Part shown: piece by piece, positions 27,074-49,803 of the stretch
How positions within the stretch are numbered: the stretch's first letter is position 1
How the letters are laid out: every line of letters begins with the position of its first letter
From: Kiritimatiellia bacterium
Lineage (GTDB): Bacteria > Verrucomicrobiota > Kiritimatiellia > RFP12 > UBA1067
Direction: 5' to 3'
Assembly: GCA_045641645.1 (NCBI GenBank)
Contig: JAZUHK010000047.1
Coordinates: 51,316 to 115,315, forward strand
DNA length: 64,000 bases
Made by a program: the position numbers and the translations under genes
Notes under the pieces: generated by a model
What the model saw: only the letters and a program-made list of their open reading frames with translations
What the model was told of the DNA's origin: nothing
Database searches by the model: none

Positions 27074-27456
27074 TGAGTTATCTTCTCGATACCTGCGCGC
27101 TCATCTGGCTCGGGATGGGCGGCGGCGACTTGAGCGCGGATGCGAGAAAACGGATTTCCGTTGCGTCGGCCTTGCATTATTCCTCCATTTCCGCTTGGGA
27201 GATTGCGCGGCTCCAGCAGGAGGGGAAGATTGTTATTCCGAATACGCCGGACGGGTTCCTGTCGGACTTAGCGAACCAGTACGGGCTTTCGGCGATTCCG
27301 CCGACCGATGACATCATGATCCGTGCGGCGCAGCTGCCTCTGCACCATCGCGATCCGGCGGACCGCATCATCATCGCGACATCACTCGTGCACGATCTCA
27401 TAATTGTTACCGGCGATGAGAAATTCGCGCAGTACGGCATGCGTACGATTTGCTGA
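27058..27456 (+). CDS. vapC: PIN-domain toxin VapC
   Basis: MSYLLDTCALIW… N-terminus with the acidic PIN residues D6 and D…; 132 aa. Confidence 0.75.
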   Translation: MGERLMSYLLDTCALIWLGMGGGDLSADARKRISVASALHYSSISAWEIARLQQEGKIVIPNTPDGFLSDLANQYGLSAIPPTDDIMIRAAQLPLHHRDPADRIIIATSLVHDLIIVTGDEKFAQYGMRTIC

Positions 27457-27478
27457 GGAAAGGGAGGTAAGGAGAAAT

Positions 27479-28882
27479 ATGCGAGCGAAATGGTTATGGG
27501 CAGGCATTGTCGCGGCGGCGGCGGTCGCGGGCGAGGGTGCGGTCAAGGTCGAGGTCGATTTCACCGCGCGGCAGGGGCGGATCAAGCCCATGCACGCGGT
27601 AGGACAGGGGCCGCTCCTTTATTGGAGTGATTTTTCGCTGTATCATTATCTGAAGGAAGCGCATGTTCCCTATATCCGGTATCACGACGTGGGCGGTCCG
27701 TTCGGCAAGATGCTCTATGTCGATATCCCGAACCTCTTCCGCGATTTCGAGGCCGACGAGCAGGACCCGAAGAATTACGACTTCACCTTCACCGATATGC
27801 TCGTCAAGGCGTGTCTCGAAAATGGCATGAAGCCGTTTTTCCGCCTCGGCGTGACGATCGAGAACATGTCGCAGATCAAGAAGTACCGCATCTTCCCGCC
27901 AAAGGATTTCGACAAGTGGGCGCGCATTTGCGAGCGGGTGGTCGCCCACTACAACGAGGGCTGGGCCGACGGCATGCACGCGGGGATCGAGTACTGGGAA
28001 GTGTGGAACGAGCCAGACGACCGCGCCAAGCCCGAGGCGTCGTTCATGTGGTGCGGCACGATGGCGGAATATCATCGGCTTTACGAGGTGACGGCGAAGC
28101 TCCTTAAAGACCGTCACCCCAAATTGAAGGTGGGCGGGTACGCCTCGTGCGGCTATTATGCCGCGAAGGCGGGGGTGCCGATTTCCGAATCGCTGCCGCC
28201 CGATTGGAAGAGCGACGGCGAGCACCATGACAACTTCTACTTCATCAAGGCGACGCTCGACTTCCTCGACTTTGTGCGCGACCATAATTGCCCGCTCGAC
28301 TTCTTCTCGTTCCACAGCTATGACCGGGCGGAACGGGTATTGGAGCAGATCGAGAGCATTTCACTGGAGATGAAGCGTCGCGGCATTGCGCCGGAGCTGA
28401 TCTTGAACGAGTGGCTGCCGGAGCCGTCGTTGGAGCGGGTCTTTTCGCCCGAGCAGAATACGGATATCGCCTCCGTCCTCATCGGCGCCCAGCATTCGGA
28501 TCTCGCGATGCTGATGCTCTATGACGCGCGGATCGAGTGCCGCAACCCCTATGCGCCGCTTTTCGATCCTGTCACCGCGAAGCCGGCGGGGGCGTATTAC
28601 GCGCTCCAGTATTTCGGCGAACTCTATCGCCGCGGGTTCGAGGTGAAGAGCGCCCTCAAGGGCGATGGTCTTAAGGTCTGTGCGGCTTCGGACGGGCGGA
28701 CGGATGGCGCGGTGATGTTGGTCAATGCGGGGACGCAAGAGGTTGCGCTGGATTTCGGCGCGTTGGCGGGTAGATTCCGCTTTGGTTCGCTCACCGAACG
28801 CGACCGCATCGGCACGGCGCTCTTCGACTTGCCGAAAGCGCTCGCGGCGAAGTCGTTTGCGCTTCTCGTTTTCGGGCTTTGA
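27479..28882 (+). CDS. Clan GH-A glycoside hydrolase, GH39-like (beta-xylosidase family), with signal peptide
   Basis: YWEVWNEPDD acid/base motif in a TIM-barrel context, and an N-terminal signal peptide MRAKWLWAGIVAAAAVAG. Confidence 0.55.
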   Translation: MRAKWLWAGIVAAAAVAGEGAVKVEVDFTARQGRIKPMHAVGQGPLLYWSDFSLYHYLKEAHVPYIRYHDVGGPFGKMLYVDIPNLFRDFEADEQDPKNYDFTFTDMLVKACLENGMKPFFRLGVTIENMSQIKKYRIFPPKDFDKWARICERVVAHYNEGWADGMHAGIEYWEVWNEPDDRAKPEASFMWCGTMAEYHRLYEVTAKLLKDRHPKLKVGGYASCGYYAAKAGVPISESLPPDWKSDGEHHDNFYFIKATLDFLDFVRDHNCPLDFFSFHSYDRAERVLEQIESISLEMKRRGIAPELILNEWLPEPSLERVFSPEQNTDIASVLIGAQHSDLAMLMLYDARIECRNPYAPLFDPVTAKPAGAYYALQYFGELYRRGFEVKSALKGDGLKVCAASDGRTDGAVMLVNAGTQEVALDFGALAGRFRFGSLTERDRIGTALFDLPKALAAKSFALLVFGL

Positions 28883-29189: not shown

Positions 29190-30341
29190 TGACGAGAAGA
29201 CGCGGGCGGGGGAACTTCTGATTTTATATTCCGACATGGTCACGCCGTAACGCGATTTGAAGCTGCGCATCAGCTGGGTGGAGGATCTCCAGCCGCAGAG
29301 ATTGGCGATGGCACCGAGCTTCATGTTCGGGCGGGAGAGAAGTTCCTGCACTTTTTCGAAGCGGGCGTCGAGAATGGCCGCGCCGATGCTTTTCCCAGTC
29401 ACCTCCAGAAACAGCTTTTCCGCAGTGCGTCGCGCTTTGCCCATCGCTTCCGCCACTTCGCTGATGCGGAGGCGGGTATCGGCGCGTTCGCGGATGAGCG
29501 TGAGCGCGCGGTTGACCGCCGCCGCGCCCAGCAAGGTCAGCGACGAATTGCGTCGCACGAGTGTCCGTGGCGGAATGTACGTGTGCCGCCGGCCGGCCGG
29601 CCGGTGTTCCATCAGCAGGGCGAGCGTCTGCGCGGCGGCCTCGCCGGCTTGTTCCATGTCCTGCTCGATGCTGGTGAGGGTGGGGTTCAGGTTCTCGCAA
29701 ATGGTCAGGTTGTTATCTACCGATACCACCTTGAGCTCGTGCGGAATCCTGAGGCCGCATTTTCTGGCGGCGGCATAAAGGGCGCTCGCCGCGAGATCGT
29801 TGACGGCAAAGGCGGCGATCGGAGGGTCGAGGCGGCGCAGGGCGGCGGCGATCTGGTCGCCGGACAGGATCGGATTGCCGTCGGTGGTTTCGATGAAACT
29901 TAAGGCGACCTGTCCGTGCTCGCATGATTTCGCGAAGGATGCGCGGCGCGCCTTGGACCAGGGGAGGTCGGATTGGACTGAAACGAAGATCGCCTGTGAG
30001 CCAGCGGCGGGGGCGAGTTCGTCGAAAGCCCGCTGAGCGATGACGGCGGCGTCACTTTCGACGGTATGGTATCGGCCCGGATGCGGGATGTTGGCATCGA
30101 GGAAGACGCGCGGCACTTTGGTGCCGGGGAGTTTTTCGAGAGCTTCGTTCGCGTGGTCGCCTTCGATGATGATGCCGTCGGGTTTGAGGGAGCGGCAGAG
30201 TTTGCGGACTTCGGCGGCAGGCGCCTCGGGTTCCAGGTAAAAGAGCTGCCACGCGGCGGCTTTGGCGACCCTGAACATGCCGATGAGTTTGTCGGCCTTG
30301 CGCATCTGGTTGGCATTGGTGAAGACGAGTACCTTTTTCAT
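29163..30341 (-). CDS. XylR-type hybrid regulator (PBP-like sensor + AraC HTH), paralog of 20399-21535
   Basis: MKKVLVFTNANQMRK… sugar-binding-fold N-terminus and a C-terminal …LGAIANLCGWRSSTQLMRSFKSRYGVTMSEY AraC HTH. Confidence 0.7.
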   Translation of the reverse strand: MKKVLVFTNANQMRKADKLIGMFRVAKAAAWQLFYLEPEAPAAEVRKLCRSLKPDGIIIEGDHANEALEKLPGTKVPRVFLDANIPHPGRYHTVESDAAVIAQRAFDELAPAAGSQAIFVSVQSDLPWSKARRASFAKSCEHGQVALSFIETTDGNPILSGDQIAAALRRLDPPIAAFAVNDLAASALYAAARKCGLRIPHELKVVSVDNNLTICENLNPTLTSIEQDMEQAGEAAAQTLALLMEHRPAGRRHTYIPPRTLVRRNSSLTLLGAAAVNRALTLIRERADTRLRISEVAEAMGKARRTAEKLFLEVTGKSIGAAILDARFEKVQELLSRPNMKLGAIANLCGWRSSTQLMRSFKSRYGVTMSEYKIRSSPARVFSSSLSKFDRH

Positions 30342-30436
30342 GCTGGAGGAGATTATAGCACATCATTTGCATAAAAGGATAGTAAAATAATTGCGTAATA
30401 CGCAATCTATTGACGCGGCAGAGATGGTAAAATGTC
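30312..30436. repeat. 125-bp block (regulator 5' end plus intergenic promoter/operator region); copy 1 of 2, second copy at 37517-37641
   Basis: About 96% identical to 37517-37641. Contains the perfect palindrome TTGCGTAATACGCAA (30391-30405) and TTGCATAAAAGG. Confidence 0.85.
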
Positions 30437-30472: not shown

Positions 30473-33400
30473 ATGAAAGCTTATTCTCGCTTTTTGGGGG
30501 CTTGGATGTCCTGTGTCGGATTGGCGATAGCCGCACAGTCGCTCGCCGCTACGGGCTTACCCGAGGGCTATATCGAGCTTAGCTATATCAAATCGACGAG
30601 CACATCGTCGAATAGCGAAATCGCCCAGCAGTATCTCGATACGGGTTATACGCCGCAGGATGCCAAGTTGGGATTCGAGCTCGACTTCGTTTTTCATGGC
30701 GGCGTAAAGAAAAGCCCCGGGAACCGCATTATGGGTTCGAGCACCAAGAGCGGCAATTATGGTCTTTTCATCGGGGCTTATAGTGATCCAGCCCCTAGCG
30801 GTGGGGTTGGCGGGCAGTTTTACTTTTGTAATTCGCCCGTTAAGAACCCGTATATTAAGGGAGGTGTTCGTCAGTTGCTCGTCCTGCGAAATAAGCAGTA
30901 CTGGAGTTATGAAATTTCCGAGGACATTTTGAGTACGAATGAATTGGGCAAAATCGATTCCTTACCGGTACAGACGAGTAATTTGGGCTATGATGGATCG
31001 ATTTTGTTGGGATCGATTAAATGTGGAACCGAGAGAGCGGAACTTCGCGCCGTCTGCACTTTTTACCGCTTCAAGATTTACGATGGGGATACGCTCCTGC
31101 ACGATTTCGTGCCGGCGCTAAGTCCAGATGGTGTCGCTGGGCTTTATGATATTGTCGGCGAGCTTGGATTTAAGACGAGCAATGATCCAACTAATTATCC
31201 TTTTACCCCTGGCGACCCGGTTGATCTCGACGGTGGCACCGTGACGATCAATCCCGTACTCGTCGAGGCCACGATCACCGTGGCCGGAAGCGCGAAGGCA
31301 AGCGGGAGTTTCATCGAGGCGGGGTCGGAGGTGACGGTTACGGCGCATCCCCTCTTGGGCGGGGAGCGGGTGATCTCGTGGGAGAAGCCGCTACCTGCGG
31401 GGGCCGTCACTTCGATGTCGGGCGAGGATGCGGTATTGACTTTTACGATGGGCTTAGAGCCGGTCATAATCGGCGTAAGGTCGGTGGCGAATGTCAATAC
31501 GACCTTGCCGTCTGGGTATCGGTTACTTGAATATATCGAATCGACGGGAACGCAGTATGTGGATACGGGGGTTAAAATTGGAAGTGATGTCGCGATGGAA
31601 TTGGAGCTGGCGCTAACGCCGAATGAGACCGTCAACGATCAGTGCAACTACTCGGGCGCGGCGCTCAATCAATCGCAGGGATGGCTTTTGGTGGGCGATT
31701 ACGGCAAAGCCGAGAACAAGTTAGGCGCTTACTTCGCCAGGGGTACACGGGCTGGCGCGGAAATCGTCTATGATTCCGCTTTCCACTACTACTATTGCGG
31801 TGACGGCTTTCAGTGCGTGGATACGACTACGGCGAATAATTCGGCGACTTTTTCCAGTGAGCTCACGCTGTACCTTTTAGATGCCAATATCGAGTGGTCG
31901 CCGACGCATAGGCGCCGGCAGCGGCTTAAGTCGTGCATCATTTACGAGGATGGGGCGGTCGTGCGCAATTTCGTGCCGGCGCTGGAACTGGCTACCGAGA
32001 CCCCGGGGCTTTATGATGTGGAAAACGGAGCGTTTTACGGGAACGCCAATTCCAGTTCGTCGGATAAGTTTGCGTACAAGGAAGTGGAGGCACTCACGGT
32101 CGTCGGCAATCCGGTCGAGGTCGGCTCGCCGGTTCCCGATTATGGACTGGATCTGGCGGCGCGGCTGGACGAGGAGCGCACCTATACCTTTCCTAACGCG
32201 GGCTTCCCGTTTACCAATGCCGAGGAGACGGTCGTCTGTACGGGACTCAGCGGCTATACGCTCACTTTGAAAAACGGCGTCTCGTATTCGGGCGAAGGCA
32301 ATTCCACCTCTTTCGTTTATACGACGGAGCATTATGGGGCGACACTCGCGTGGAATTTCACCACCATCAGCCGCCTCACGTTTGCCGCGGCGGACGAGTT
32401 CGGTGCCGTCATTGGGGCAGAAGCGGGCTTTTATGCGCCTGGTACGGAGCTTACGCTGCGGGCGAAGCCCGTGCGGGAGGCGGTGTTCGCGGGATGGACG
32501 GGGGATGTCGATCCGGAGCACGCATTCGATAATCCGCTCACCGTCACGATGGGTTCGTCGCCGCTCAACCTCGTGGCGAATTTCCGTTCGAACACCCAGC
32601 CCACGGCGGAGGAGTGCTCGACGAAGGATCTCGTCGTTTCGATTATCGGCGACAGCTACAGTTCGTTTAGCGGCTATAATAACTTAGGCACGCCGTATTA
32701 TCCCGCTCGCGATGTCACTTCGGTCGAGCAGATGTGGTGGCGTAAGGTAATCAAAAACCTCGGGGCGAAGCTGGGGGTCTGCGATGCCTCTGGCGGGACA
32801 ACGCTCGGTTATAAGACGAAGAGTTCCTCGTTCCTTTCGCGAGTGCGGAAACTGGACGATGGCGCGAACGGTACGCCCGATATCATCTTCGTCTTCGGTG
32901 GGGCGAATGATCAGGCGCAGGGCGCGGGGCAGGGCGATTACCTTTACGATCCCACAACTTGGAATAATACGACGCTCGCCAGTTTCCGTCCCGCCTGCGC
33001 GGCGATGATCAATCACCTCCGTAATCTCTATCCCAAGGCGCGGATTTATTTTGTCGTCAATGCACCGGCGACTTCGGATACCGATATCTACCTTCAGCCC
33101 GCATATATCGATTCGATGACCAACGTCTGTGCGCATTGCGGAGTGCCGTATATCGAGCTTCACGATATTGATCGCGTAGAACGTCATCCGACGGCGGCTG
33201 GGATGGCGGCCATCGCCGAGCAGGTGACGGCGTTCGTCCAGGCGGATTTCGCCGCGCGCGCGACCTACGGTTATCAGGATAAGCTGTTTTATTCGAATGA
33301 CTCCTCTTTAAGCTGCCAAAAGGTGGGTAAGGAGTATGTCTATATTGCCACCAATACGGATCGCCGCATTACGCTCGTGGCGCGGCGCAATCTGGAGGTT

Positions 33401-34186
33401 AGGCGCTCGCTGGTGGTGGGCGGTGGCGGCGCGGGAGGCGCGACCATTGGCGGCGGCGGCGGTGGCGGCGGCGTGACGGAGGCAACGTATGCCGAGGGAG
33501 GTTTCCTGGTGAAGAAGGGCGAGCGGCTGACGCTGGTCGTGGGCGCGGGCGGCGGATATGACGCGGTGGTGCCGGCGGAGGCCTCGGGTTCGCCGATCAC
33601 GGTCGGTCATTGGCAAAGGGGCGTTAGCGGTACGGCGTCTCGGGTTTTGACTAATGGTGTTGAGCTCGCGTGCGCTGGCGGCGGTGGTGGTGGCGGCGGC
33701 TGGGAGAGTGTTGCTGGCGGTGCGGCGCAAGATGGCGCGAGTACTGGCGGCGGCGGTCGCGGCGGTGCAGCGGGAGCGGTTACCGGGGTTGGTCACGCGG
33801 GCGCGAATGGACCGAGTAACGGCAATGGCGGCGGTGGCGGCGCCGGGCTTGCGGGTGCGGCTTCAGGTGGCGGCGTGGGCGGCGCAGGCGGCGCGGGAGT
33901 CGAATCGGATATTACCGGTTTTGCGCTTGATTACGGCGCGGGCGGTGGTGGCGGTGCAGGTAATGGTAGCGGCCAGCCGGCGCAACCGGGCGCGGCGGGT
34001 GACGAAAGCGCTGGTGCAGGCGGTGCGGTCGGTGCGGTCGGCGGCAAGGGTGCTGACGGCTTGGGTGGCGGCGGTGGCGGCGGTGGCTACAACGGCACGG
34101 GCTATGTCGGCGGCAAGGGCGGCAATGGTGCGGTTATTTTGCGGGTGCGCTCGAAGGTCGAGGGGACGATATTGTTCTTAAGGTGA
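30473..34186 (+). CDS. Very large secreted modular protein (1237 aa): repeated type-A and type-B modules of unknown function, GYxFxGW repeats, an SGNH/GDSL hydrolase domain, and a ~240-aa Gly-rich tail
   Basis: Signal peptide. Module motifs include QYLDTGYTP…RIMGSS…YRFKIYDGDTLLHDFVPA…GLYDIVGELGFKTS and YRLLEYIESTGTQYVDTGV…HYYYCGDGFQCVD…VVRNFVPA. SGNH blocks IIGDSYSSFSG, FVFGGANDQ, DIDRVERHPT. Tail GGGGAGGATIGGGGGGGGV…. Confidence 0.6.
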   Translation: MKAYSRFLGAWMSCVGLAIAAQSLAATGLPEGYIELSYIKSTSTSSNSEIAQQYLDTGYTPQDAKLGFELDFVFHGGVKKSPGNRIMGSSTKSGNYGLFIGAYSDPAPSGGVGGQFYFCNSPVKNPYIKGGVRQLLVLRNKQYWSYEISEDILSTNELGKIDSLPVQTSNLGYDGSILLGSIKCGTERAELRAVCTFYRFKIYDGDTLLHDFVPALSPDGVAGLYDIVGELGFKTSNDPTNYPFTPGDPVDLDGGTVTINPVLVEATITVAGSAKASGSFIEAGSEVTVTAHPLLGGERVISWEKPLPAGAVTSMSGEDAVLTFTMGLEPVIIGVRSVANVNTTLPSGYRLLEYIESTGTQYVDTGVKIGSDVAMELELALTPNETVNDQCNYSGAALNQSQGWLLVGDYGKAENKLGAYFARGTRAGAEIVYDSAFHYYYCGDGFQCVDTTTANNSATFSSELTLYLLDANIEWSPTHRRRQRLKSCIIYEDGAVVRNFVPALELATETPGLYDVENGAFYGNANSSSSDKFAYKEVEALTVVGNPVEVGSPVPDYGLDLAARLDEERTYTFPNAGFPFTNAEETVVCTGLSGYTLTLKNGVSYSGEGNSTSFVYTTEHYGATLAWNFTTISRLTFAAADEFGAVIGAEAGFYAPGTELTLRAKPVREAVFAGWTGDVDPEHAFDNPLTVTMGSSPLNLVANFRSNTQPTAEECSTKDLVVSIIGDSYSSFSGYNNLGTPYYPARDVTSVEQMWWRKVIKNLGAKLGVCDASGGTTLGYKTKSSSFLSRVRKLDDGANGTPDIIFVFGGANDQAQGAGQGDYLYDPTTWNNTTLASFRPACAAMINHLRNLYPKARIYFVVNAPATSDTDIYLQPAYIDSMTNVCAHCGVPYIELHDIDRVERHPTAAGMAAIAEQVTAFVQADFAARATYGYQDKLFYSNDSSLSCQKVGKEYVYIATNTDRRITLVARRNLEVRRSLVVGGGGAGGATIGGGGGGGGVTEATYAEGGFLVKKGERLTLVVGAGGGYDAVVPAEASGSPITVGHWQRGVSGTASRVLTNGVELACAGGGGGGGGWESVAGGAAQDGASTGGGGRGGAAGAVTGVGHAGANGPSNGNGGGGGAGLAGAASGGGVGGAGGAGVESDITGFALDYGAGGGGGAGNGSGQPAQPGAAGDESAGAGGAVGAVGGKGADGLGGGGGGGGYNGTGYVGGKGGNGAVILRVRSKVEGTILFLR

Positions 34187-34190
34187 GGTG

Positions 34191-37100
34191 ATGGTTGATG
34201 GTCGGTGTTTGGGGGCGCTTTTGGGCGGCGTTGCCTTGGCGGTGCTGTCGGCCGTCGGCGGCGGGCTGCCGGATGGCTATGTTGAACTCACCTGCATCAC
34301 CTCTGACGGCAATCAATACCTGGATACGGGCTATACGCCGACATCGGTCGACTTTGGCTTTGAGCTGGAGTTCACCTTCAAGGGAACGGTCGGAACGGGT
34401 GGCACGCGCATTATCGGCTCCTCGACGCGGAAGGGGACGAACCCAGGCGTTTTTGTCGGCAGCTACCAAGGTGCTGCGGCTTCGTCGGGCGGTCAGATGT
34501 GGTTTTGCGGCGCCTGCGGAACCGGCAATCCGGGGATTGTCCCCAACCGCTGGATGTCGATCTCGCTCAAGCGCCGGCGCTACACGGCCAGCTCGGCCAG
34601 CACGTCTACGACCGTTGACTTGAGCGGGGCTTCAGATACGAGCGGGCTTGCCGGTTCCGTTTGGCTTGCGTCGGTTCACCAAAGTTCAGACAATAGGGCG
34701 CATTCCCCCGGCGACTGGTATCGGCTGAAGCTTTACGAGGGCGATGCGCTGGTGCATGACTTTGTGCCGGCGAAGGATTCCTCGGGGCAGGTAGGCCTCT
34801 ATGACGTGGCTGGCAATCTGGGCTTTAGGACGAGCGCGGTTTCCGGCAAGCCCTTTATCGCCGGGGCCGAAGTGGAGAGCGGCTCTGAAGATTCGTCTGC
34901 GCGGGTCGTTAAGGTTGACAACGAGTGGTATTATGAAGGTTCGATTGCGGGCGATCCGTCGGGTGACTACCTGCCAGACACCAATCTGACCTTTACGGCG
35001 GTGGCGAACGAGGGCTATCGCTTTGCCGGTTGGTCGGGCGATGTCGGCGCGGCTGAAATCGACGGGAACACGGCCGTGGTCAGGGTGACCGGCGAGTCGC
35101 CGCGGGGCATCGCGCTTTGGGCGAACTTTGAGAAGCTTCCCTGTCCGCATGTCTTCTCAATGTCGATCAAGGCGACGAGTTTTGCCGCGGGCGGCGACCT
35201 GGTGAATGAGGGTCGCCGGGATGAACTGATCGGCTGGCTTTTGGCGAACGGCTTCACGAAGGTCTACCTTGAGACCTACCGGCACAATGTCTATGCGCCC
35301 ACCGAGCTTTTGGCGACGGCGAGCAACGAGTTTGCGGCGGCGGGACTTGATGTGTGCGGGCTCATCACCCCGACTTGCCTTGACCTGGATCCCTCGGCGA
35401 CGCCGGTGAGCGGCAGCTATGAAACGTGCTTCAGCAATCCGTTCGCCCGCGAGCGGCTCTCGAATGAAGTGGCGCGGTGTGCGCGGCTTTTCAACACCAT
35501 CCTCTTTGACGACTTCCTCTTCGCCTCGTGTCAGCAGAGCTGCCCTCATTGCCGCAGCACATCGGTCGAGTTCCGCACGGAGCTCGTCAATGCCGTCTGC
35601 CGGGAGATCTTGGCGACGGCGAGGGAGGTGAACCCCCGCTGCCACTGCATCATCAAGTATGCCAACTGGTATGACCTCTGGACCGGCAGGGGACTGAACC
35701 CCGCCTTGCAGACCGCCATCTTCGGCGAGTGCTGGGTGGGGAGCGAGACGCGCGACGCAGGCAGCGATCCGCTCTGGGCCTGCAATGCCTATGACTATCT
35801 CAATTCGCGCTGCGGCGGGCGTTGCGGCGGCGTGTGGTTCGACCCGCTTGATTCGACGCCCGCCAAGTATGTGGAGCAGGCCTACTACTCGATTCTTTCG
35901 GGTGCGCCGGAGTCGCTGTTCCATTGCTTTGACTACATGCTGGCCGACAACGGCGGCACGACGCCCTATGGCGAGAGCTTTAAGGACGCCTATAAGTGTA
36001 CGGATCTCCTGGAGGAGCGCATGGAGGAGCTGCATGCGCTCGCCGATTTTTGCGATGCGGCCGAACGCGGTGAGGTGAAGAAGCTTTCAAACGGCATCTC
36101 GCAGCATTACTACACGCTGGACGGCGCCACTTATGTCGCCCGGGTCAACACAAGCAAGATGCAGGCGGGCGACGAGTTCGGGGTCTTGGCGCCGAACCAG
36201 TTCGGCTTCCCCTTGCTGGTGGCGGAGGCGACGGACGAGGATTGTCCTGACGAAGCGGAATATTTTGAGGATGGGCGGTATATGCGCGTACAGCATGTCT
36301 ATTCGGAAGATGGCGGCAATGGCTTTACCGCGAGCACCGAAAATTACATTGATACGGGCTACACCCCCGCTTCCACGAGCGTGGGCTTCTACTTTGACTT
36401 TGTCTTTGACGGCACAATTGGGACGGATGCGCCGCGAATCATGGGATCTTCAATCAGGGATAAGAACAACAACTGGGGCGGTCTTGAATTGGGCGCTTAT
36501 AATTCAACTGGCGGCGGCGAGTTCTTTGCCTTCGGCCACGGGCCCCAAGAGCTGGTCAATCCGCGCCTGCGGTCGGGCTGCCGCATGACGCTGGATTTCC
36601 GCAACGGCATTTTGCTCGCGGCGGATGGCGGCAGGGTGGACCTTTCGGCGCATCATGTCGATACGGATTTCAACGGGAACATTTGGATCGGCTGCGTTCA
36701 TTCGCCTGACTATGGCACGAAGAAGGGTTGTGCGCCTTTGAAGGTCTACCGTTACAAAATTTACGAGGGCGACGAGGTCGTCCATGATTTTGTGCCGGTG
36801 AAACGGGTGGAGGACGGAGCCGCCGGGCTTTACGACCTGGTGGGCGGGAAGGGCTTCCGGGTGGGAACGGGGTTTAAGGCCGGCACTTGGACGCCCCGGT
36901 CGAGCCGGGGCGCTTTCAGGCAGCTTCAGTATATCGAGTCGGACGGGCTGCAGTATTTTGACTTGGGCGTTCCGACGGCGACTAATGTGGCCTTCGAAGC
37001 CGAGATGGCGTCGGTTTACGAGGAGTCGACGGAGAACAACTACATCGGCGCGGTCTATGGCAGCAGTTCGGGCTGGATGGCGATTGGCGACTATGGAGAA

Positions 37101-37517
37101 GGGAAGCTCGTCTCCTATTATGCGACCAAGAGCCGGCAGGGAACTGGCGTCGAGATCCCCTATGATACGCTCTTCCACCATTACTATTGCGGGAACGGCT
37201 TGCAGGTGATTGACGGCGTGACCAATCACACGGTCTCGGCCAAGATGCCGGACAACGTCGCCACGGTCAACCTGTGGGCGTTTAAGGCGAATCTCACCTT
37301 CAGCGGCAGTTCCATGGCGAAGCTGAAGATCAAGTACCTGAATGTCTATCTGAACGGGGTCTTGGTTCGCCAGCTCGTGCCCGTCAACGCCGGCGGGCGG
37401 ATTGGCATGCTCGACAAGCTTAGCGGCCAGTTCTACCTGAACGAGGGCGCGGGGAGCTTTGCCGCCGGCCCTCCCTGCGCGAAACGGGGCTTGATCATCC
37501 GCTACCTTGGCCGTTAG
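34191..37517 (+). CDS. Very large secreted modular protein (1109 aa), paralogous modules to 30473-34186 plus a Cys-rich central domain
   Basis: YVELTCITSDGNQYLDTGYTP…YRLKLYEGDALVHDFVPA…GLYDVAGNLGFRTS, GYRFAGWSGD, a central …VYLETYRHNVYAPTELL…CPHCRS… domain, then a second A module (YRYKIYEGDEVVHDFVPV) and a B module (LQYIESDGLQYFDLGV…HHYYCGNGLQVIDG). Its start overlaps the upstream stop. Confidence 0.6.
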   Translation: MVDGRCLGALLGGVALAVLSAVGGGLPDGYVELTCITSDGNQYLDTGYTPTSVDFGFELEFTFKGTVGTGGTRIIGSSTRKGTNPGVFVGSYQGAAASSGGQMWFCGACGTGNPGIVPNRWMSISLKRRRYTASSASTSTTVDLSGASDTSGLAGSVWLASVHQSSDNRAHSPGDWYRLKLYEGDALVHDFVPAKDSSGQVGLYDVAGNLGFRTSAVSGKPFIAGAEVESGSEDSSARVVKVDNEWYYEGSIAGDPSGDYLPDTNLTFTAVANEGYRFAGWSGDVGAAEIDGNTAVVRVTGESPRGIALWANFEKLPCPHVFSMSIKATSFAAGGDLVNEGRRDELIGWLLANGFTKVYLETYRHNVYAPTELLATASNEFAAAGLDVCGLITPTCLDLDPSATPVSGSYETCFSNPFARERLSNEVARCARLFNTILFDDFLFASCQQSCPHCRSTSVEFRTELVNAVCREILATAREVNPRCHCIIKYANWYDLWTGRGLNPALQTAIFGECWVGSETRDAGSDPLWACNAYDYLNSRCGGRCGGVWFDPLDSTPAKYVEQAYYSILSGAPESLFHCFDYMLADNGGTTPYGESFKDAYKCTDLLEERMEELHALADFCDAAERGEVKKLSNGISQHYYTLDGATYVARVNTSKMQAGDEFGVLAPNQFGFPLLVAEATDEDCPDEAEYFEDGRYMRVQHVYSEDGGNGFTASTENYIDTGYTPASTSVGFYFDFVFDGTIGTDAPRIMGSSIRDKNNNWGGLELGAYNSTGGGEFFAFGHGPQELVNPRLRSGCRMTLDFRNGILLAADGGRVDLSAHHVDTDFNGNIWIGCVHSPDYGTKKGCAPLKVYRYKIYEGDEVVHDFVPVKRVEDGAAGLYDLVGGKGFRVGTGFKAGTWTPRSSRGAFRQLQYIESDGLQYFDLGVPTATNVAFEAEMASVYEESTENNYIGAVYGSSSGWMAIGDYGEGKLVSYYATKSRQGTGVEIPYDTLFHHYYCGNGLQVIDGVTNHTVSAKMPDNVATVNLWAFKANLTFSGSSMAKLKIKYLNVYLNGVLVRQLVPVNAGGRIGMLDKLSGQFYLNEGAGSFAAGPPCAKRGLIIRYLGR

Positions 37518-37641
37518 CATTGGTGAAGACGAGTACCTTTTTCATGCTGGAGAAGATTATAGCACACCATTTGCATAAAAGGATAGTAAAATAATTGCGT
37601 AATACGCAATCTATTGACGCGGCAGAGATGGTAGAATATGT
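37517..37641. repeat. Second copy of the 125-bp promoter/operator block, including the palindrome TTGCGTAATACGCAA at 37595-37609
   Basis: Begins exactly at the stop codon of the upstream gene and ends at the start of the downstream gene. Confidence 0.85.
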
Positions 37642-38840
37642 TGACACCTAAAATGGGATGGAGTATGATTCTACTGATAGCTACGATTTTTTCGATGTCC
37701 TTCAAGGTGACCGCGCTCAACGGCGAGTTGACGCGCCCGGGAGTGAAGGAGCGGGCGGCGGCTTGGCTCAAGACGCATCACATCACCAAGGTCTATTTGG
37801 AGACCTACCGTCACGCCGAGTATGTGCCGACTGAGCGGCTGGTCGCCTATCGGGACTGGTTTCGGACGAATGGCTTCGAGGTGGCGGGACTGTTGACCCC
37901 GACGATGCTCAACGATCCGGAAAAGCCAGGGGAAAAGCCGCCTTACTGTTGCTGTTGGAGTGATCCTAAATGCCGCGAGCGATTAGCGGCAGAGTCCGTG
38001 CGCGCGGCGGGCGTTTTCGATACGGTGCTGTTGGATGATTTTCTCTTCGATTGCTGCACCTGTCCGCGTTGCACGCGGCTTAAGGAGGAGAGCGGCAAGT
38101 CGCTGGACGATTTTCGCTTCGACCACATGGAGGATCTTTGCCGTAAGGCGATCTATGAGCCCGCGAAGGCGGCGCATCCGAAGAGCCGCTTCATCATCAA
38201 GTTCCAGTGCTGGTATAAGGGGTGGTCCACGTCGGGGACGGATCCGAAGCGGCTCACTAATGTCTTCGGCGCGTGTTGGATCGGCACCGAGTCGCGTGAC
38301 AATTGTGACGATCCGATGCAATCGGCGTGGATTACGCCGTATGTGGACGATTTGACGGGCGGCCGTTGCGAGGGCTGCTGGTTTGATCCGCTCGACTCGA
38401 CGCCCGAGCGTTATGTGCAGCAGGCGCGCTATACGATTCTCGGCGGTACGCGGGAAACGCTTTTCCACGCTTATGACTATCTGCTCGCCGAAGACCCCGG
38501 CGGCGTGCCGTTCGGGCAGAGCCCGAAAGGCGGTCACGCATGCCGCGCGGCGCTGGAAGCGGAGATTGACGGGCTCTGGCGTCTCGCGGAGATAGTGGGA
38601 CCGCTCAGGCCCGTTGAGCAGAAGTTGGAGCCAAATGGCGTCTCGCGGCATCTTTTCCGCGAGGGCCAAACGCTCTATACGGCTTATCAGAATACAACCA
38701 ATGAAGCGCGAGCGGTGGTTATGCCGGCGAGAGCAAAGGTGAGCTTGATTCTACCCGACGATTCCGGCTACGAGCCGTCCACGGTGGTGCTTAAGCCGCA
38801 TGCTTTCGTGCTGTTTGCGCATCCGGTGGTGCAGAAGTAA
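37638..38840 (+). CDS. Standalone paralog of the Cys-rich central domain of 34191-37517 (unknown function; possibly a TIM-barrel glycosidase-like fold)
   Basis: …ITKVYLETYRHAEYVPTERL…CCCWSDPKCRERL…LLDDFLFDCCTCPRCT…CWIGTESRD…GRCEGCWFDPLDSTPERYVQQARYTILGG… aligns with residues ~330-640 of the upstream protein. Confidence 0.55.
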   Translation: MLTPKMGWSMILLIATIFSMSFKVTALNGELTRPGVKERAAAWLKTHHITKVYLETYRHAEYVPTERLVAYRDWFRTNGFEVAGLLTPTMLNDPEKPGEKPPYCCCWSDPKCRERLAAESVRAAGVFDTVLLDDFLFDCCTCPRCTRLKEESGKSLDDFRFDHMEDLCRKAIYEPAKAAHPKSRFIIKFQCWYKGWSTSGTDPKRLTNVFGACWIGTESRDNCDDPMQSAWITPYVDDLTGGRCEGCWFDPLDSTPERYVQQARYTILGGTRETLFHAYDYLLAEDPGGVPFGQSPKGGHACRAALEAEIDGLWRLAEIVGPLRPVEQKLEPNGVSRHLFREGQTLYTAYQNTTNEARAVVMPARAKVSLILPDDSGYEPSTVVLKPHAFVLFAHPVVQK

Positions 38841-38967
38841 TCGGCTTTATTACGCGGCGTTGAAAGAGCGTTTCTGACACGGTTGCGCGGTGAAAGCCGA
38901 ATAGCCGACGTTGCCGTCAATTTCGCCGACGTGCCGGACTGGGCGGCGACAGGGTTCGCGAATAATG

Positions 38968-38976
38968 TGCTATAAT
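38968..38976 (+). promoter_or_regulatory. Extended -10 TGcTATAAT upstream of the GH92 gene
   Basis: aatgtgctataatatttggc. Confidence 0.35.
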
Positions 38977-39070
38977 ATTTGGCATGAGAGCATTGCGTAA
39001 CTTCATGTCCAATCGCGGTTATCAGCTGATCAGCAGGGTTGTACGCCGTGCGTTCTTGCTTGACCCTCGA

Positions 39071-41320
39071 ATGCTGATAACTTTCATGGCCGCGGCCTTG
39101 GCCGCGGGAGTGTCCGCGGCGGAAGCGCCGCAGGAAACGCCGCTCGCGGCGCCGGATCTGTTCATCGGCACGCAGGGGCTCGGGCATGTTTCGCCGGCGG
39201 CGGCGTGGCCGTTCGGCATGGTGCAGGCGGGGCCCGATACGTCGAAGACGCCGGAGCGCTATTTCGGCGATTGGCCGCATACCTGCGGCTACCAGCATAA
39301 TGACCGGTTCCTCTGGCGTTTCTCGCAATGCCGGTTCTACGGCATCGGATGCGGCTCGATGGGATTCTTCGGGCTGTTGCCGTCCGCGAGTCCCTTTGAT
39401 GCGGCGAATCACGCCTATGCGAAGGAGATGGACAAGGCGACCGAGAAGGCCATTCCCGGATACTACACGGTGACGCTGAAGGAGGGGAAGGTGCGTTGCG
39501 AGATGACGGCGCTCGCCCGTTCGGCGGCGTATCGTTTCGACTTCGCTCGCGGCGGCCGCGCCTATCTTCTGGTCGATCCGGGATGGGGCTGTCAGCTGGA
39601 CGAGCCGAAGCGCAGGGTGGATATGGCCGGTATCGACGCGTGCTTCGGCCGTTACGTGCTCGACTCAGAAGCGCGCGTTCAGACGCCGACGCGCCTTGCC
39701 TTGCACACGCGGCAGATGGATTGGAATGACGTTGAATGCTGGGGCGTCGCCGAGCTCTCTTCGCCGATCGTCTCGTCCCGGAAACTTCGCGCGGCGAAGT
39801 TTCCGCATGGCGAGATCGTCGAATACGGCTTCGACCTGCCGACGAACGGCGTTTTGGAGGTGCGACTCGCCTTGTCCCGCACGTCGATTCGGGCGGCGGC
39901 GAAGAATCTGGCATCGGAGATGCCGGACTTCGATTTCGACGGGGCGAGGGCGAAGGTCGCCGCCGAATGGAAACGGCGGCTATCGGCGCTTAGGCTCGAT
40001 CCGGCGACGCCAGAGCCGGTGAAGACGATCTTCGAGTCGGCTTTTTACCGCACGATGATCCATCCGAGCGATCTTGGTGATGTTGGCGGTAAGCGCGCTT
40101 ATTCCAATCTCTCGCTCTGGGACATCTTCCGCTCCTGTTCGCCGCTGCAGACGATCTTCGCGCCGGAGGTGACAGGCGGACTTGTCGAGTCGATGTGCGA
40201 TATCTTCGACCGTCAGGGGTATCTTCCGATTCTGCATACGTGGGGCGTCGATAACCACTGCATGATCGGGCATCACGCGGTGCCGATCATCGTGGACGCC
40301 TATCTTAAGGGCATCGGCGGCTTTGACGCCGAACGCGCTTACGAGGCGGTGAAGGATTCGCTGACCGTGATGCATGTGAAAGCCGGTAACGGCACTTGGG
40401 GGCTTTTGAAGGAGGATTGGGATGTCTATGACGCCTACGGCTACTATCCGTTTGACAAGTTGACCGGCGAATATCACGGGCAGGTGGTGAAGGGCGAATC
40501 CGTCTCCCGTACGCTCGAGTGCGCCTACAATGACGCCTGCGCGGCGAAATTCGCCGCGGCGCTCGGCAAGCGGGAGGACGCGGCGTTTTTCGCGAAGCGC
40601 GCGCAGAGCTGGAAGAACGTCTTCGATGCGTCCGTCGGCTTCATGCGCGGCAAGGATTCGAAAGGCCGCTGGCGCGAGCCGTTCGACCCGAAGTCGTGCG
40701 GCGCGGGGCCGTGGGCGGAGAACGACTTCACCGAAGGTAACTCCTGGCAATATACGTGGCATGTGATGCACGATATCCCGGGGCTTGTCGCGGCGATGGG
40801 CGGCAAGGAGAAGTTCGGCGCGAAGCTGCAGGCGCTCTTTGAGCAGACGGACGAGGTTTACGGCAGTTCGTTCACGCACGATGTCTCGGGGCTGATCGGG
40901 CAGTATGCGCACGGCAACGAGCCGAGCCATCATGTCGCGTATCTCTTTCGCTGGTCGGACCGTCCGGAGAAGACCGATGAATACGTCGGCCGCATCTGCC
41001 GCGAGCTTTACGGGCCTAAGCCGGACGGCTGTTGCGGCAATGACGATTCGGGGGCGATGGCGGCGTGGTATGTCTTTTCGGCGCTCGGGTTCTATCCGGT
41101 GGATGCCTGTGGCGGGGAATACGTCATCGGCGCGCCGCAGGTGCCGGGTGCGACCTTGCGGTTGCCGAACGGCAAGGTGTTCAGGATGGAAGCGAAGGGA
41201 TTCGGTGGGGAGAAGAGGTATGTGAAGTCGGTGACTTGGAATGGGCGCAAGATTGTGAATTGGCGTTTTCGGCATGAGGAACTGTTGGCGGGGGGAGTGC
41301 TTGGTTTTGAGTTGGAGTAA
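39071..41320 (+). CDS. GH92 family alpha-mannosidase (secreted)
   Basis: Signal peptide MLITFMAAALAAGVSAAEA. GH92-like blocks …YSNLSLWDIFRS…, …HAVPIIVDAYLKGIGGFD…, …GNEPSHHVAYLF…CGNDDSGAMAAWYVFSALGFYPV…. The ORF track offers an earlier ATG at 38984. Confidence 0.65.
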   Translation: MLITFMAAALAAGVSAAEAPQETPLAAPDLFIGTQGLGHVSPAAAWPFGMVQAGPDTSKTPERYFGDWPHTCGYQHNDRFLWRFSQCRFYGIGCGSMGFFGLLPSASPFDAANHAYAKEMDKATEKAIPGYYTVTLKEGKVRCEMTALARSAAYRFDFARGGRAYLLVDPGWGCQLDEPKRRVDMAGIDACFGRYVLDSEARVQTPTRLALHTRQMDWNDVECWGVAELSSPIVSSRKLRAAKFPHGEIVEYGFDLPTNGVLEVRLALSRTSIRAAAKNLASEMPDFDFDGARAKVAAEWKRRLSALRLDPATPEPVKTIFESAFYRTMIHPSDLGDVGGKRAYSNLSLWDIFRSCSPLQTIFAPEVTGGLVESMCDIFDRQGYLPILHTWGVDNHCMIGHHAVPIIVDAYLKGIGGFDAERAYEAVKDSLTVMHVKAGNGTWGLLKEDWDVYDAYGYYPFDKLTGEYHGQVVKGESVSRTLECAYNDACAAKFAAALGKREDAAFFAKRAQSWKNVFDASVGFMRGKDSKGRWREPFDPKSCGAGPWAENDFTEGNSWQYTWHVMHDIPGLVAAMGGKEKFGAKLQALFEQTDEVYGSSFTHDVSGLIGQYAHGNEPSHHVAYLFRWSDRPEKTDEYVGRICRELYGPKPDGCCGNDDSGAMAAWYVFSALGFYPVDACGGEYVIGAPQVPGATLRLPNGKVFRMEAKGFGGEKRYVKSVTWNGRKIVNWRFRHEELLAGGVLGFELE

Positions 41321-41347
41321 GAGTTGGAGTTGGAGAGTGGCGGAAAG
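41309..41347. repeat. Second copy of the GGAG-rich spacer (gagttggagtaagagttggagttggagagtggcggaaag)
   Basis: Matches 4236-4273; here it overlaps the GH92 stop codon. Confidence 0.7.
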
Positions 41348-41421
41348 ATTCTGAGTGAAGGAGATTTTGACCACGTCGGTCGTGGTCTGTCCTATGGCCG
41401 CCGCAGCCGCGGATCCGCGGA

Positions 41422-43203
41422 TCAGTCGTCGAGCGCGCGGAGATCGAGCTTAAGGACCTTCGCCGCCGAGCCCTGGCGCTGGCCCGGCTCTTGCTTGGCT
41501 CCACTGACGTATTCGCGCCCCATTACCGCATTGGTGGGAAGCCCCACGTCGCTCGGCAGATCGGCGGGATTCGCGATGCCGATCGTCACGCACACGATGA
41601 TCTCCTTCTGCACCTTCTGGCGGCTCTTCCAGCCGAAGAGCTTCGGACCGATCCACGGGATCTTGCGGAGATAGGGGATGCCGGAATCGACATCGTCCTC
41701 CACGGTGCGCGAGAGTCCGCCGATGACCGCCGTTGAGCCGTCCTTCATCGTGAACTCGGTGGTGATGCGCTTCATTGCGATTACCGGGAAGAGCCCGTAG
41801 GAACTGTCGCTCTGGATGTTGTAGAAGCCGGTGGCGGTGGTCTCGGTATCGAGTTGCGAAATGGTGGGGATGATCTCGACGGAAATGAGACCGTCGGGCG
41901 AGATGCGCGGCTTGACGCTCAGCTCGATGCCCCACTGGTAGAAGCAGGAGCCGGAGAAGAGCGCCTTGTCGCGGTAGTCGAGCTCTTTGTGCCCGCGCTC
42001 GCCGGGGATCTCCTGGATCTCGGCGGCAGTGTCGAGATAGGCGCCGTAGCTGGTGTCGTTGCGCTGCGAGGTGAGTTTCACGTTCGGAAACTTGGTGGTC
42101 ATATCGACGACGGCCTCCTTGCCGTTGGAGACGATGACCTTCGGGTTGGAGAAGATCCTGCCTTCGCCGAACTCCTCGAAGGCCGAGAGTGCGAGGCGGA
42201 AGTCGTCGGCGGAGAGCTGGCCGGAAAAGCCGGAGGCGTTGCGCCAACCCATCGATTCCGCCGAAAGCCCGGCGCCCGTCGCTTCCTTGATGGCGTCCGG
42301 GCGCAGAAAATTCGCAGTGGTATAGTCGCGTACGGACTTGCCGTCGGAGATGTCGTTGCCTTCGGCATTGAACTGCTTGGGCTGGTAGAAGTGGTCGGAC
42401 TTGCCGTTCGAATAGTGAGCGGCCTTGCCGCTGTTGAATTCGATGCCGCCGGAGATGTTCTTGGCCGTCATCCCCCAGCTTTCGAGCTGGTTCCACTGGA
42501 TGCCCAGCTTGTGCATCGCCTCGCTCGAAAGTTCGAGGAAACGCGCCTCGATGTAGATCTGGGCGACGGCCTTGTCCACGGCCTTGACGATCGATTCGCA
42601 GTCGGCGATGGTCTTTTCGGTGGCGGTGACGACCACCACGTTGGCGCCCGCGAAGCAGGTGGCGACGGGAATGGTGATTTCGCCCTTGTCGTCCTTCTGG
42701 CCGTAGGACTGGTTGAAGAGCACGGTCAGCTCGGAGGCGGAGGCGTGATTGAGCGTGAAGGTCTTGGTGAGGATGGGATCCGCGACCTTGTCTTCCTTGA
42801 CGAAGTAGATTTCGCCGCGTTTCTCCAGCCGATAGTTGCGCGAATTGAGGATCGACTGAAGGGCGTCGAACCAGGGGACACGGTGAAGGTTCACCGAGAC
42901 GCGCCGCAGGAGGTTGGTGGAATCGTCGGAGATGATGTTCGCATCCGTCACCTTGCGGAACTGCCGCAGGACATCGGCCAGCGTGGTGTCGTCGCAGGCG
43001 ATATCGACGAGCGTCGTCGCCGCCGGCGAGTCGAGCCGCGAGATCCGCGCCTGATGCGCGGCATCGGCGGAATCGTCGATTTCCCCGAGATCGATCACGT
43101 CGGCCTTCATCTCTACGGCGGCGGCCGGGGTGACGGCGCTTTCTTCGGCGAAGGCGCCGAAGCAGGCGAGCAGCAAGGCAAAGAGGACGTGTTTCTGGTT
43201 CAT
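41422..43203 (-). CDS. Secretin (GspD/PilQ family outer-membrane channel)
   Basis: Signal peptide, N-domains, and a C-terminal secretin block …VIGGLSRTVEDDVDSGIPYLRKIPWIGPKLFGWKSRQKVQKEIIVCVT…. Confidence 0.8.
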   Translation of the reverse strand: MNQKHVLFALLLACFGAFAEESAVTPAAAVEMKADVIDLGEIDDSADAAHQARISRLDSPAATTLVDIACDDTTLADVLRQFRKVTDANIISDDSTNLLRRVSVNLHRVPWFDALQSILNSRNYRLEKRGEIYFVKEDKVADPILTKTFTLNHASASELTVLFNQSYGQKDDKGEITIPVATCFAGANVVVVTATEKTIADCESIVKAVDKAVAQIYIEARFLELSSEAMHKLGIQWNQLESWGMTAKNISGGIEFNSGKAAHYSNGKSDHFYQPKQFNAEGNDISDGKSVRDYTTANFLRPDAIKEATGAGLSAESMGWRNASGFSGQLSADDFRLALSAFEEFGEGRIFSNPKVIVSNGKEAVVDMTTKFPNVKLTSQRNDTSYGAYLDTAAEIQEIPGERGHKELDYRDKALFSGSCFYQWGIELSVKPRISPDGLISVEIIPTISQLDTETTATGFYNIQSDSSYGLFPVIAMKRITTEFTMKDGSTAVIGGLSRTVEDDVDSGIPYLRKIPWIGPKLFGWKSRQKVQKEIIVCVTIGIANPADLPSDVGLPTNAVMGREYVSGAKQEPGQRQGSAAKVLKLDLRALDD

Positions 43204-43703
43204 TGGCCGGATCCTTTCTCTTCCGGGGAGGTTGGGATTTCGCGCAATTTGACGCGCAGAAGCTTCAGGGTGTTGGTTGCCGCCGACATCTGGAGGCGCC
43301 AGGTGAAGCGGTAGCCATTGTGGTTGACGGAAATGAGGTCGCCGTCGGCATAGACCTTGCCGTTGACGGTGACGGCCGAACGGCCGGCGTCGGCGTCGGT
43401 TCTCAGGGTGCTGCCGAATCTGAGCGTCTTGCGCGCCCGCGTCCAGAGGCGGTCGATGCCGGGGCCGTCTGCCATGTTGACGGGCTCGAATTCGGCAGCG
43501 GCCGTGGCGGTGACATTGGTGGCGGCGGTTTTCGTGTCGGGCGCTGCCGCCGGAGCCGCAATCCGGACCTGCGGGTCCTCGACGATCGCTTCGCGTTCGC
43601 CGACGTAGCCCTCCGGCCAGAAGGGATTGCGCAGCGGCGTGGCGGCGGCGAGGAGCGCGGCGAGGAGCATGGTCATCGGACGGCTCCTTTCTTCATGGGC
43701 CAT
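43200..43703 (-). CDS. PilP-like pilus assembly protein (hypothetical)
   Basis: Small protein with signal/lipoprotein-like N-terminus and a beta-rich C-terminus, encoded between the PilO-like gene and the secretin (pilMNOPQ order). Confidence 0.4.
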   Translation of the reverse strand: MAHEERSRPMTMLLAALLAAATPLRNPFWPEGYVGEREAIVEDPQVRIAAPAAAPDTKTAATNVTATAAAEFEPVNMADGPGIDRLWTRARKTLRFGSTLRTDADAGRSAVTVNGKVYADGDLISVNHNGYRFTWRLQMSAATNTLKLLRVKLREIPTSPEEKGSGQ

Positions 43704-45965: not shown

Positions 45966-46003
45966 CAGCGGAAAATATTATACCAAAAATTCGGGCACAA
46001 AAT

Positions 46004-46012
46004 ATGGTATAA
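46004..46012 (+). promoter_or_regulatory. Extended -10 TGGTATAAT upstream of the response-regulator gene
   Basis: aaatatggtataatgttcg, ~12 nt before the ATG. Confidence 0.4.
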
Positions 46013-46023
46013 TGTTCGCCGAC

Positions 46024-46545: not shown

Positions 46546-46626
46546 TTCTTCATCACGAAATTTGCTACAATGTCTTTCGTAATCGGCAAAGTGTCGGTTG
46601 CGGCTACAAAAAAGGAAAAACAAAAA

Positions 46627-46989: not shown

Positions 46990-47011
46990 CCCGCTTTGCT
47001 TAAAGGGATAA

Positions 47012-47050
47012 AAAAGAGGAGCGGATTTTCAAGGTCTGCTCCTCTTTTTG
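47012..47050 (+). terminator. Rho-independent terminator (stem agaggagc / gctcctct, 15-nt loop, TTTT)
   Basis: aaaaagaggagcggattttcaaggtctgctcctctttttg. Confidence 0.7.
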
Positions 47051-48715: not shown

Positions 48716-48722
48716 GAAGGGG

Positions 48723-49793: not shown

Positions 49794-49803
49794 GGGGTAG
49801 GGG

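Follow-up and report, generated by a model that had tools for sequence, protein, structure and literature searches.

Putative multimodular carbohydrate-active enzymes of a Kiritimatiellia bacterium carry a predicted LamG-like module family and a GH42-like barrel domain

In a 64,000-nucleotide stretch of DNA from a Kiritimatiellia bacterium (contig JAZUHK010000047.1, positions 51,316 to 115,315; hereafter the window), we have identified three consecutive genes, encoding proteins of 1237 (P1), 1109 (P2) and 400 amino acids (P3), which together with a glycoside hydrolase (GH) gene of family GH92 probably specify Sec-exported multimodular carbohydrate-active enzymes (CAZymes) in a XylR-regulated locus without SusC/D proteins. 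The kind of system is already known; what is new is an undescribed, very large family of modules repeated in P1 and P2, and an odd GH42-like enzyme domain, GH_cat, shared by P2 and P3. Kiritimatiellae are abundant, poorly understood glycan degraders of animal guts, and the locus illustrates how they assemble enzymes without SusC/D systems. Its value lies in a large unannotated domain family and in functional hints for the Pfam family PF28584 rather than in a new biological principle. A first-pass annotation of the same DNA had placed the three open reading frames (ORFs) exactly where we find them, all on the + strand (Table 1), and had described a family of very large proteins built from two types of module of unknown kind, A and B, which it also attributed to the 400-residue protein.

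The modules are indeed repeated in the two large proteins. All-against-all BLASTP aligned P1 1-325 with P2 1-301 (34% identity, E 2e-36), P1 52-246 with P2 718-903 (37%, E 5e-25) and P1 349-529 with P2 910-1090 (37%, E 2e-29), and a hidden Markov model (HMM) built from the five P1/P2 copies set the module borders. The motifs quoted earlier for types A and B were found in P1 and P2, yet the types are not separate: A and B queries match the same regions in 60 metagenomic homologues of the P2 A-B tandem, and hhalign aligned the A-type and B-type profiles with 97.9% probability (E 4e-13, 173 columns), so that A and B are subtypes of one domain of ~190 residues. P3 was matched by no module HMM. Across 45 copies (alignment A1) the family consensus reads LPxGYTxLEYIESxGTQYIDTG, followed by ~110 variable residues and LYxCKIYDxxxLVRDFVPCxxxxGxxGLYDLVxxxFYxNxGxGxF; conservation is limited to the first and last strands, with Y7, Y12, Y20, D22, T23, G24, P160 and G170-D173 invariant or nearly so, while the middle is variable and holds no conserved ExDxxE-type motif.

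By sequence, the module fits no described family among those searched. The window modules had no Pfam match, the gathering threshold of Laminin_G_3 (PF13385) not being reached; this was the only recurrent Pfam match of the family, faint and confined to 3 of 45 members (best E 0.0025), so the earlier view that the modules cannot be assigned to a named domain holds for their sequence. NCBIfam gave no match for P1, P2 or P3, PHROGs gave a single marginal match among 45 family members, and the module profile matched none of the PDB sequences. Precomputed Pfam annotation, which includes the PF28xxx families, showed for module homologues either no entry or unrelated partner domains, and a full-text literature search for the motif QYIDTG found no paper. 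A protein with a laminin G-like (LamG) domain encoded in the same locus was considered as a remote sequence relative of the modules and rejected, as hhalign against the module profile was not significant.

The fold, in contrast to the sequence family, can be named. A structure model of P1 module B predicts, with high confidence, a beta-jelly-roll of the ConA/LamG type, made of two antiparallel sheets over ~180-200 residues. The best structural matches were the laminin G (LG) domain of PAPP-A (score 12.0) and the putative carbohydrate-binding protein BACOVA_03559 of Bacteroides ovatus (PDB 4dqa; 11.7), followed by LG domains of agrin, neurexin, laminin and perlecan (about 10), pentraxins (9-10), sialidase lectin domains and carbohydrate-binding module (CBM) family CBM40 (8-10) and GH16 and PL7 enzymes (8-9), all at 4-14% sequence identity. 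Like LamG, LNS and pentraxin domains, the module is an appended, repeated and apparently non-catalytic unit of extracellular proteins; unlike them, it shows no significant sequence similarity to these families, with 5-12% identity when aligned by structure, and bears a signature of its own, which opens with LPxGYxxLEYIESxGxQYIDTG and closes with LVRDFVPxxxxxGxxGLYD.

The second element that carries our reading is the domain shared by P2 and P3. P3 17-378 aligned with P2 322-674 at 39% identity (E 6e-81, BLASTP); thus P3, taken before for a module carrier, is instead a paralogue of the central domain of P2, and this domain, rightly called Cys-rich before, is predicted to be a glycoside-hydrolase-type TIM barrel. 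All of 63 P3 homologues, including P0061 (95% identical to P3), carry a precomputed match to PF28584, which bears the name GH_cat. P3 itself had no match in the Pfam release that we scanned, since PF28584 is newer than that release. Full-text search for PF28584 found no paper, and a literature search for a described GH family matching GH_cat returned nothing relevant. An origin of P2 by recent recombination between P1 and P3 was rejected, the identities being only 34-39%.

In structural comparison, GH_cat was matched by GH42 enzymes (3tts, 25.2; 1kwk, 24.8; others, 22-23), the GH164 beta-mannosidase 6t5o (24.8), Cwp19 (21.9) and PgaB (20.3), at 8-12% identity. The model has the (beta/alpha)8 catalytic barrel of GH42, and this fold is assigned as firmly as that of the module, yet the Pfam model Glyco_hydro_42 did not match GH_cat even at E <= 10. 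A weak GH164 profile match (E 0.019) came through an extra domain of longer GH_cat relatives, which is faintly similar to Glyco_hydro_42M and GH164. In an alignment of 64 GH_cat sequences including P2 (alignment A2), the residues K51, E55, F127, D133, D134, K188, W192, G200, G216, E218, R220, G246, W248 and D250 (P3 numbering) are invariant; on the predicted strands of P3, D133-D134 follow beta4, E218 follows beta6 and D250 follows beta7. A cysteine cluster accompanies them, composed of C106 and C140-x-C142-xx-C145 in P3, the latter starting six residues after beta4, and of C414 and C448-x3-C452-xx-C455 in P2, with the Cys columns at least 90% conserved.

In GH42, Asn147-Glu148 lie at beta4 and Glu305 at beta7, and a structural zinc is bound by Cys113, Cys153, Cys155 and Cys158 (PMC8573354). 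Mapped by strand position, not by superposed coordinates, GH_cat has Asp-Asp and Asp where clan GH-A has Asn-Glu and Glu, so the catalytic residues are not those of GH42. The four-Cys cluster, with its CxCxxC just after beta4, resembles the zinc site present in some GH42 enzymes. GH_cat is therefore best described, on these models, as a GH42/GH164-like barrel that has retained the Cys cluster. By their position, Asp134 and Asp250, with or without Glu218, are the candidate catalytic residues, and by analogy the four cysteines would bind a structural zinc. Unlike GH42, P2 and P3 have no trimerisation domain, and GH_cat has its own Pfam family. We regard it as a possible new family of glycosidases whose active site is unusually composed.

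GH_cat relatives are encoded at no fewer than 566 loci in a scan of one genome per species; a single-sequence scan of genome contigs with P3 gave no relative. The closest relatives in the locus scan (44-48% identity) belong to Kiritimatiellae metagenome-assembled genomes (MAGs) of herbivore guts, and further hosts are Planctomycetes, Victivallales, Bacteroidales, Clostridia, Cohnella, Treponema and Acidobacteria. Fusions deserve attention: GH92 and GH_cat share one 1090-residue ORF in a Bacteroidales MAG (L005, 7784-11053), a Kiritimatiellae MAG (L003, 8665-10794) joins GH_cat to a GDSL esterase in a single ORF, and a rumen MAG (L018, 7133-11119) joins it likewise to a FAD-dependent oxidoreductase domain (PF12831). 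In the window, the GH_cat genes P2 and P3 lie between the GDSL-bearing P1 and GH92. As the fusion partners elsewhere are the neighbours here, we propose a common substrate for the esterase, GH_cat and GH92; the fusions to GH92 and GDSL esterases are concrete and testable hints to it.

P1 carries the esterase of the locus. Its SGNH/GDSL domain, recognized before, was matched by Pfam and shows on inspection the Ser, Gly, Asn and His blocks expected of such enzymes (GDS at 726-728, GGAND at 809-813 and RHP at 904-906, with H905), although no block V Asp stands at the canonical -3 position. The GYxFxGW segments of the first-pass annotation correspond to InlB B-repeat-like Flg_new_2 repeats in both P1 and P2, the weaker P1 copy scoring E 0.0066. 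The poly-Gly end of P1 was likewise confirmed as a glycine-rich C-terminal domain. It is probably Gly_rich_2 (PF21722)- or ALK_LTK_GRD (PF12810)-like in sequence, and by inspection its poly-Gly runs and short beta segments follow one another as they do there, yet the match stays below threshold (positions 20-225 of 226, E 0.24), scoring being hampered by composition bias. Compared pairwise and by HMM, the P1 tail showed no significant likeness to the glycine-rich domains of relatives; the combination of module and glycine-rich domain itself recurs in relatives, with significant PF12810 or PF21722 matches.

It is worth noting that module proteins bearing a signal peptide close with a short tail of the form G-hydrophobic(5)-R/K/Q, for example GTILFLR (P1), GLVIIVR, GMIIFVR and GFLIILR. 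Homologues with such a tail are P0001, P0002, P0003, P0012, P0019, P0025, P0199, P0215 and P0223. The LamG protein of the locus ends in STVLYLK and P2 in GLIIRYLGR; among window ORFs of at least 200 amino acids, only P1 and the LamG protein show the pattern. At this length the tail could not form a membrane helix; it may be an undescribed sorting or retention tag of Kiritimatiellae-type secreted proteins.

The locus appears to vary between near-identical strains. At the DNA level, the metagenomic contig L001 (ENA sample ERZ27247137) matches window positions 30796-34200 and 37661-48843 with 95-98% identity, with locus order and housekeeping neighbours conserved, and lacks the intervening 3.46 kb (34200-37661), which hold P2 and a promoter copy. 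At the junction (L001 3394-3408) the P3 orthologue follows the P1 orthologue after 12 nt, and the sequence around the P2 start is kept, which favours loss of P2 in that strain. The absence of P2 would reflect either strain-level gain or loss of a 1109-residue enzyme, loss being favoured, or an assembly collapse. The pair of very large proteins thus appears not to be conserved even locally.

A duplicated element lies upstream of P1 and P3. Two 125-bp copies, 96.8% identical by blastn, cover the 5' tip of a divergent XylR-like gene with the P1 upstream region, and the interval from the P2 stop to the P3 start. With the repeat upstream of P3, the P1 control region has a recent duplicate in front of P3 and GH92. 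Both copies contain the 19-bp near-palindrome AATTGCGTAATACGCAATC, which is present two times in the window, where chance would give 0.01 occurrences, and is a candidate operator.

How the parts might work together can be sketched as follows. P1-P3 would be exported by the Sec pathway and then released or displayed at the surface, crossing the outer membrane through the adjacent type II secretion genes (from 41422). The LamG-like modules would act as non-catalytic binders holding the SGNH esterase of P1 and the GH_cat domain of P2 on a polymeric glycan or on a cell surface. The esterase would remove acyl groups, GH_cat and GH92 would then cleave glycosidic bonds of the same, probably mannose-containing glycan, P3 and GH92 would act on released fragments, and the XylR-type regulator would control both the P1 and the P3 promoters. 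The tight packing of P1, P2, P3 and GH92 in this order on one strand, with the GTG/ATG start of P2 overlapping or abutting the P1 stop, and module A beginning directly after a signal-peptide-like N-terminus in P1 and P2, are consistent with such a scheme. As in CBMs, the modules are contiguous units within carbohydrate-active enzymes, joined in P1 to an SGNH esterase and in P2 to a barrel of GH type, and by analogy we lean slightly towards carbohydrate binding as their role. The earlier description of a glycan-capture or processing system holds as far as a glycan locus is concerned, yet capture alone does not describe it, as P2 and P3 are predicted enzymes.

In a broad sense, the locus resembles polysaccharide utilisation loci (PULs) in its clustered GHs and sugar-responsive regulator, and its proteins resemble multimodular secreted CAZymes of the Planctomycetes-Verrucomicrobia-Chlamydiae (PVC) group and Firmicutes, which combine a catalytic domain with binding modules and Ig-like spacers, much as P1 and P2 join an esterase or hydrolase domain to repeated binding-type modules and B-repeat spacers. 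It differs from PULs in having no SusC/SusD pair. Pfam scans of ~33 ORFs across the window gave no SusC/SusD-type match, in agreement with the earlier view that this is not a canonical SusC/D PUL, and the locus is not one of the Bacteroidota type. It differs from known CAZymes in that the binding-type module of P1 and P2 is not among the Pfam CBM or lectin models searched, and in that P1 ends in a glycine-rich domain, unusual for such enzymes.

The module is far more widespread than the locus. Among 1.84 billion representatives (50% identity clusters), its profile matched 33,958 at E <= 1e-3, 26,838 at E <= 1e-10 and 9,711 at E <= 1e-30, with up to 16 matched stretches in one protein and lengths of up to 7.6 kaa (thousand amino acids). 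In a sample of 209 members, biased to best scores, proteins carried 1-13 copies, modules made up a median 80% of protein length, the amino-acid composition was of a low-GC type in 186, and a crude test found a signal-peptide-like N-terminus in only 35. Partner domains seen across the family were the glycine-rich PF12810 and PF21722, Flg_new, fn3, DUF6273, Big_2, Laminin_G_3 and N_methyl. Foldseek against the BFVD viral models also found true family members on human-gut virome contigs (best E 8e-13, 26% identity), one of them annotated as GDSL lipase and another as "receptor protein-tyrosine kinase", the latter name presumably reflecting an ALK/LTK-type glycine-rich domain. The module thus ranks with the larger domain families that still lack a description. 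Giant proteins from gut bacteria and viromes that are now called "hypothetical" could be annotated in very large numbers with a model of it, and knowing its ligand would show how these organisms recognise glycans or surfaces. As a separate observation, a low-GC subset of module proteins (among P0004-P0053) has MSFDYSTLVTDRTQADV-like N-termini and WFYSGDLYSGEV-like C-termini, which suggests a distinct architecture, possibly that of a prophage tail fibre.

Several points weigh against the enzymatic reading of the locus. The wider module family consists mostly of tandem arrays with few or no enzyme domains, so an enzyme-linked CBM role is not the family norm, and this lowers our confidence in carbohydrate binding. 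Within 10 kb of GH_cat, the module HMM found a match at only one of 80 loci (L018), so that module and GH_cat are not generally linked. Without the Asn-Glu/Glu pair of clan GH-A, GH_cat could be non-hydrolytic or use another mechanism. The signal peptides of P1, P2 and P3 were judged by eye, and the substrate, loosely put as a mannose-containing and possibly acylated glycan, is a guess from neighbours and fusions, the mannose hint coming from the linkage to GH92 and the resemblance to GH164.

Another possibility is that P1 and P2 are chiefly surface adhesins or fibre-like scaffolds attaching the cell to particles or other cells, with the enzyme domains as accessories. Most family members are near-pure arrays of 1-13 modules, often with Flg_new, fn3 or glycine-rich domains and no enzymes, and the G-hydrophobic(5)-R tail of P1, the LamG protein and several homologues could be a surface-retention tag. 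Against this, the modules here share a polypeptide chain with an esterase whose SGNH motifs are intact or with a GH-type barrel that has all the residues invariant in its family, GH2, GH39 and GH92 genes under sugar-type regulators surround P1 and P2, and P2 appears dispensable in a near-identical strain. We therefore regard a mainly adhesive role as unlikely, if worth keeping in mind.

An origin as phage-derived receptor-binding or depolymerase proteins, of the tail-fibre or tailspike type and resident in the chromosome, has far less in its favour. The BFVD gut-virome proteins share the module and some metagenomic homologues have tail-fibre-like termini; however, no phage structural, integrase or lysis genes were found among the scanned window ORFs, P1, P2 and P3 have Sec-type N-termini, the order of the locus with its housekeeping neighbours is conserved in the related strain and, besides the lone PHROGs match, a tblastn search of 50,697 phage records with a typical module was empty. 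A general phage-tail-fibre identity of the module is unsupported by that last search, and a phage origin of P1-P3 seems very improbable to us. It is just as hard to credit that the modules are themselves catalytic jelly-rolls (GH16-, PL7- or GH11-like), for, despite the GH16 and PL7 matches, the better structural matches are to LG, LNS, pentraxin and lectin domains without catalytic function, invariant and near-invariant residues lie in the first and last strands rather than in a central cleft strand, no ExDxxE-type motif is conserved, and up to 16 copies per protein are typical of binding repeats.

A wider picture can be drawn, which we offer tentatively and hold to be rather doubtful as a whole. 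Perhaps the module is a plug-in "lectin cassette" of LamG fold, with a fixed framework and a hypervariable middle, used across gut phage-like elements, Firmicutes surface arrays and PVC glycan enzymes, and GH_cat a new GH42/GH164-derived glycosidase with Asp-based chemistry, its zinc site kept, that works with GH92 and the SGNH esterase on an acylated mannose-containing glycan.

Table 1. Features of the locus and its surroundings (positions in the window; residue ranges refer to the protein named)
Feature	Positions	Strand	Match or remark
XylR-like regulator (second; Peripla_BP_3 and AraC domains)	20399-21535	-	
LamG protein, neighbouring XylR-controlled unit	21633-23705	+	Laminin_G_3 PF13385 4.9e-17
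LamG protein, C-terminal tail	23682-23702		
GH2 enzyme	23746-26634	+	
GH39-like enzyme	27404-28882	+	PF01229 4.8e-20
XylR-like regulator, divergent from P1	29163-30341	-	Pfam Peripla_BP_3 1.6e-25, AraC-type HTH_18 7.6e-13
125-bp repeat, copy 1	30309-30433		near-palindrome at 30389-30407
P1, 1237 residues: signal peptide, module A, B-repeat, module B, B-repeat(s), SGNH esterase, Gly-rich domain, short hydrophobic tail	30473-34186	+	
P1 module A, 27-251	30551-31225	+	module HMM 1e-85
P1 weaker B-repeat copy, ~264-330	~31262-31462	+	PF18998
P1 module B, 343-549	31499-32119	+	
P1 Flg_new_2 B-repeat, 640-707	32390-32593	+	PF18998 E 2e-6, 28 bits (cutoff 23.6)
P1 SGNH/GDSL esterase domain, 722-921	32636-33235	+	PF16255 4.1e-29, PF13472 3e-11
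P1 glycine-rich C-terminal domain	33422-34159	+	PF21722, below threshold
P1 C-terminal tail	34160-34183		
P2, 1109 residues: signal peptide, module A, B-repeat, GH_cat barrel, module A, module B	34188-37517	+	
P2 N-terminal module A, 25-230	34260-34877	+	module HMM
P2 Flg_new_2 B-repeat, 250-301	34935-35090	+	PF18998 1.7e-8, 34.8 bits (cutoff 23.6)
P2 GH_cat domain (PF28584-type), 322-674; DD at 441-442	35151-36209	+	likeness to P3; all invariant A2 columns
P2 second module A, 694-907	36267-36908	+	module HMM
P2 module B, 905-1098	36900-37481	+	module HMM
P2 C-terminal tail	37491-37514		
125-bp repeat, copy 2	37513-37637		palindrome at 37593-37611
P3, 400 residues: signal peptide, stand-alone GH_cat (beta/alpha)8 barrel, small C-terminal beta domain	37638-38840	+	
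GH92 alpha-mannosidase-family enzyme, downstream partner of P3	38984-41320	+	PF07971 2.9e-149
Secretin and four ATPases, type II secretion/type IV pilus type	41422-43203 (-), 47048-48715, 53405-55072, 55072-56205, 56202-57890		

The neighbours named before, that is GH2, GH39 and GH92 enzymes, two XylR-like regulators and the LamG protein, are all supported by Pfam matches (Table 1). LepA of the window shares 87-91% identity with Kiritimatiellae MAG proteins, which places the genome in the PVC group, class Kiritimatiellae. Next to the enzyme genes, on their downstream side, lie a secretin gene and four paralogous ATPase genes of the type II secretion system/type IV pilus type, three GspE/MshE-like and one PilT-like. 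In the same region, several ORFs of 350-660 amino acids without Pfam match (43673-45965, - strand; 48699-49862, - strand; 51081-53060, + strand) may be spurious ORFs in high-GC DNA or unannotated pilus or secretion components. The secretion genes are arranged in the same way in contig L001, where a response regulator and a pilin-like N_methyl gene accompany them.

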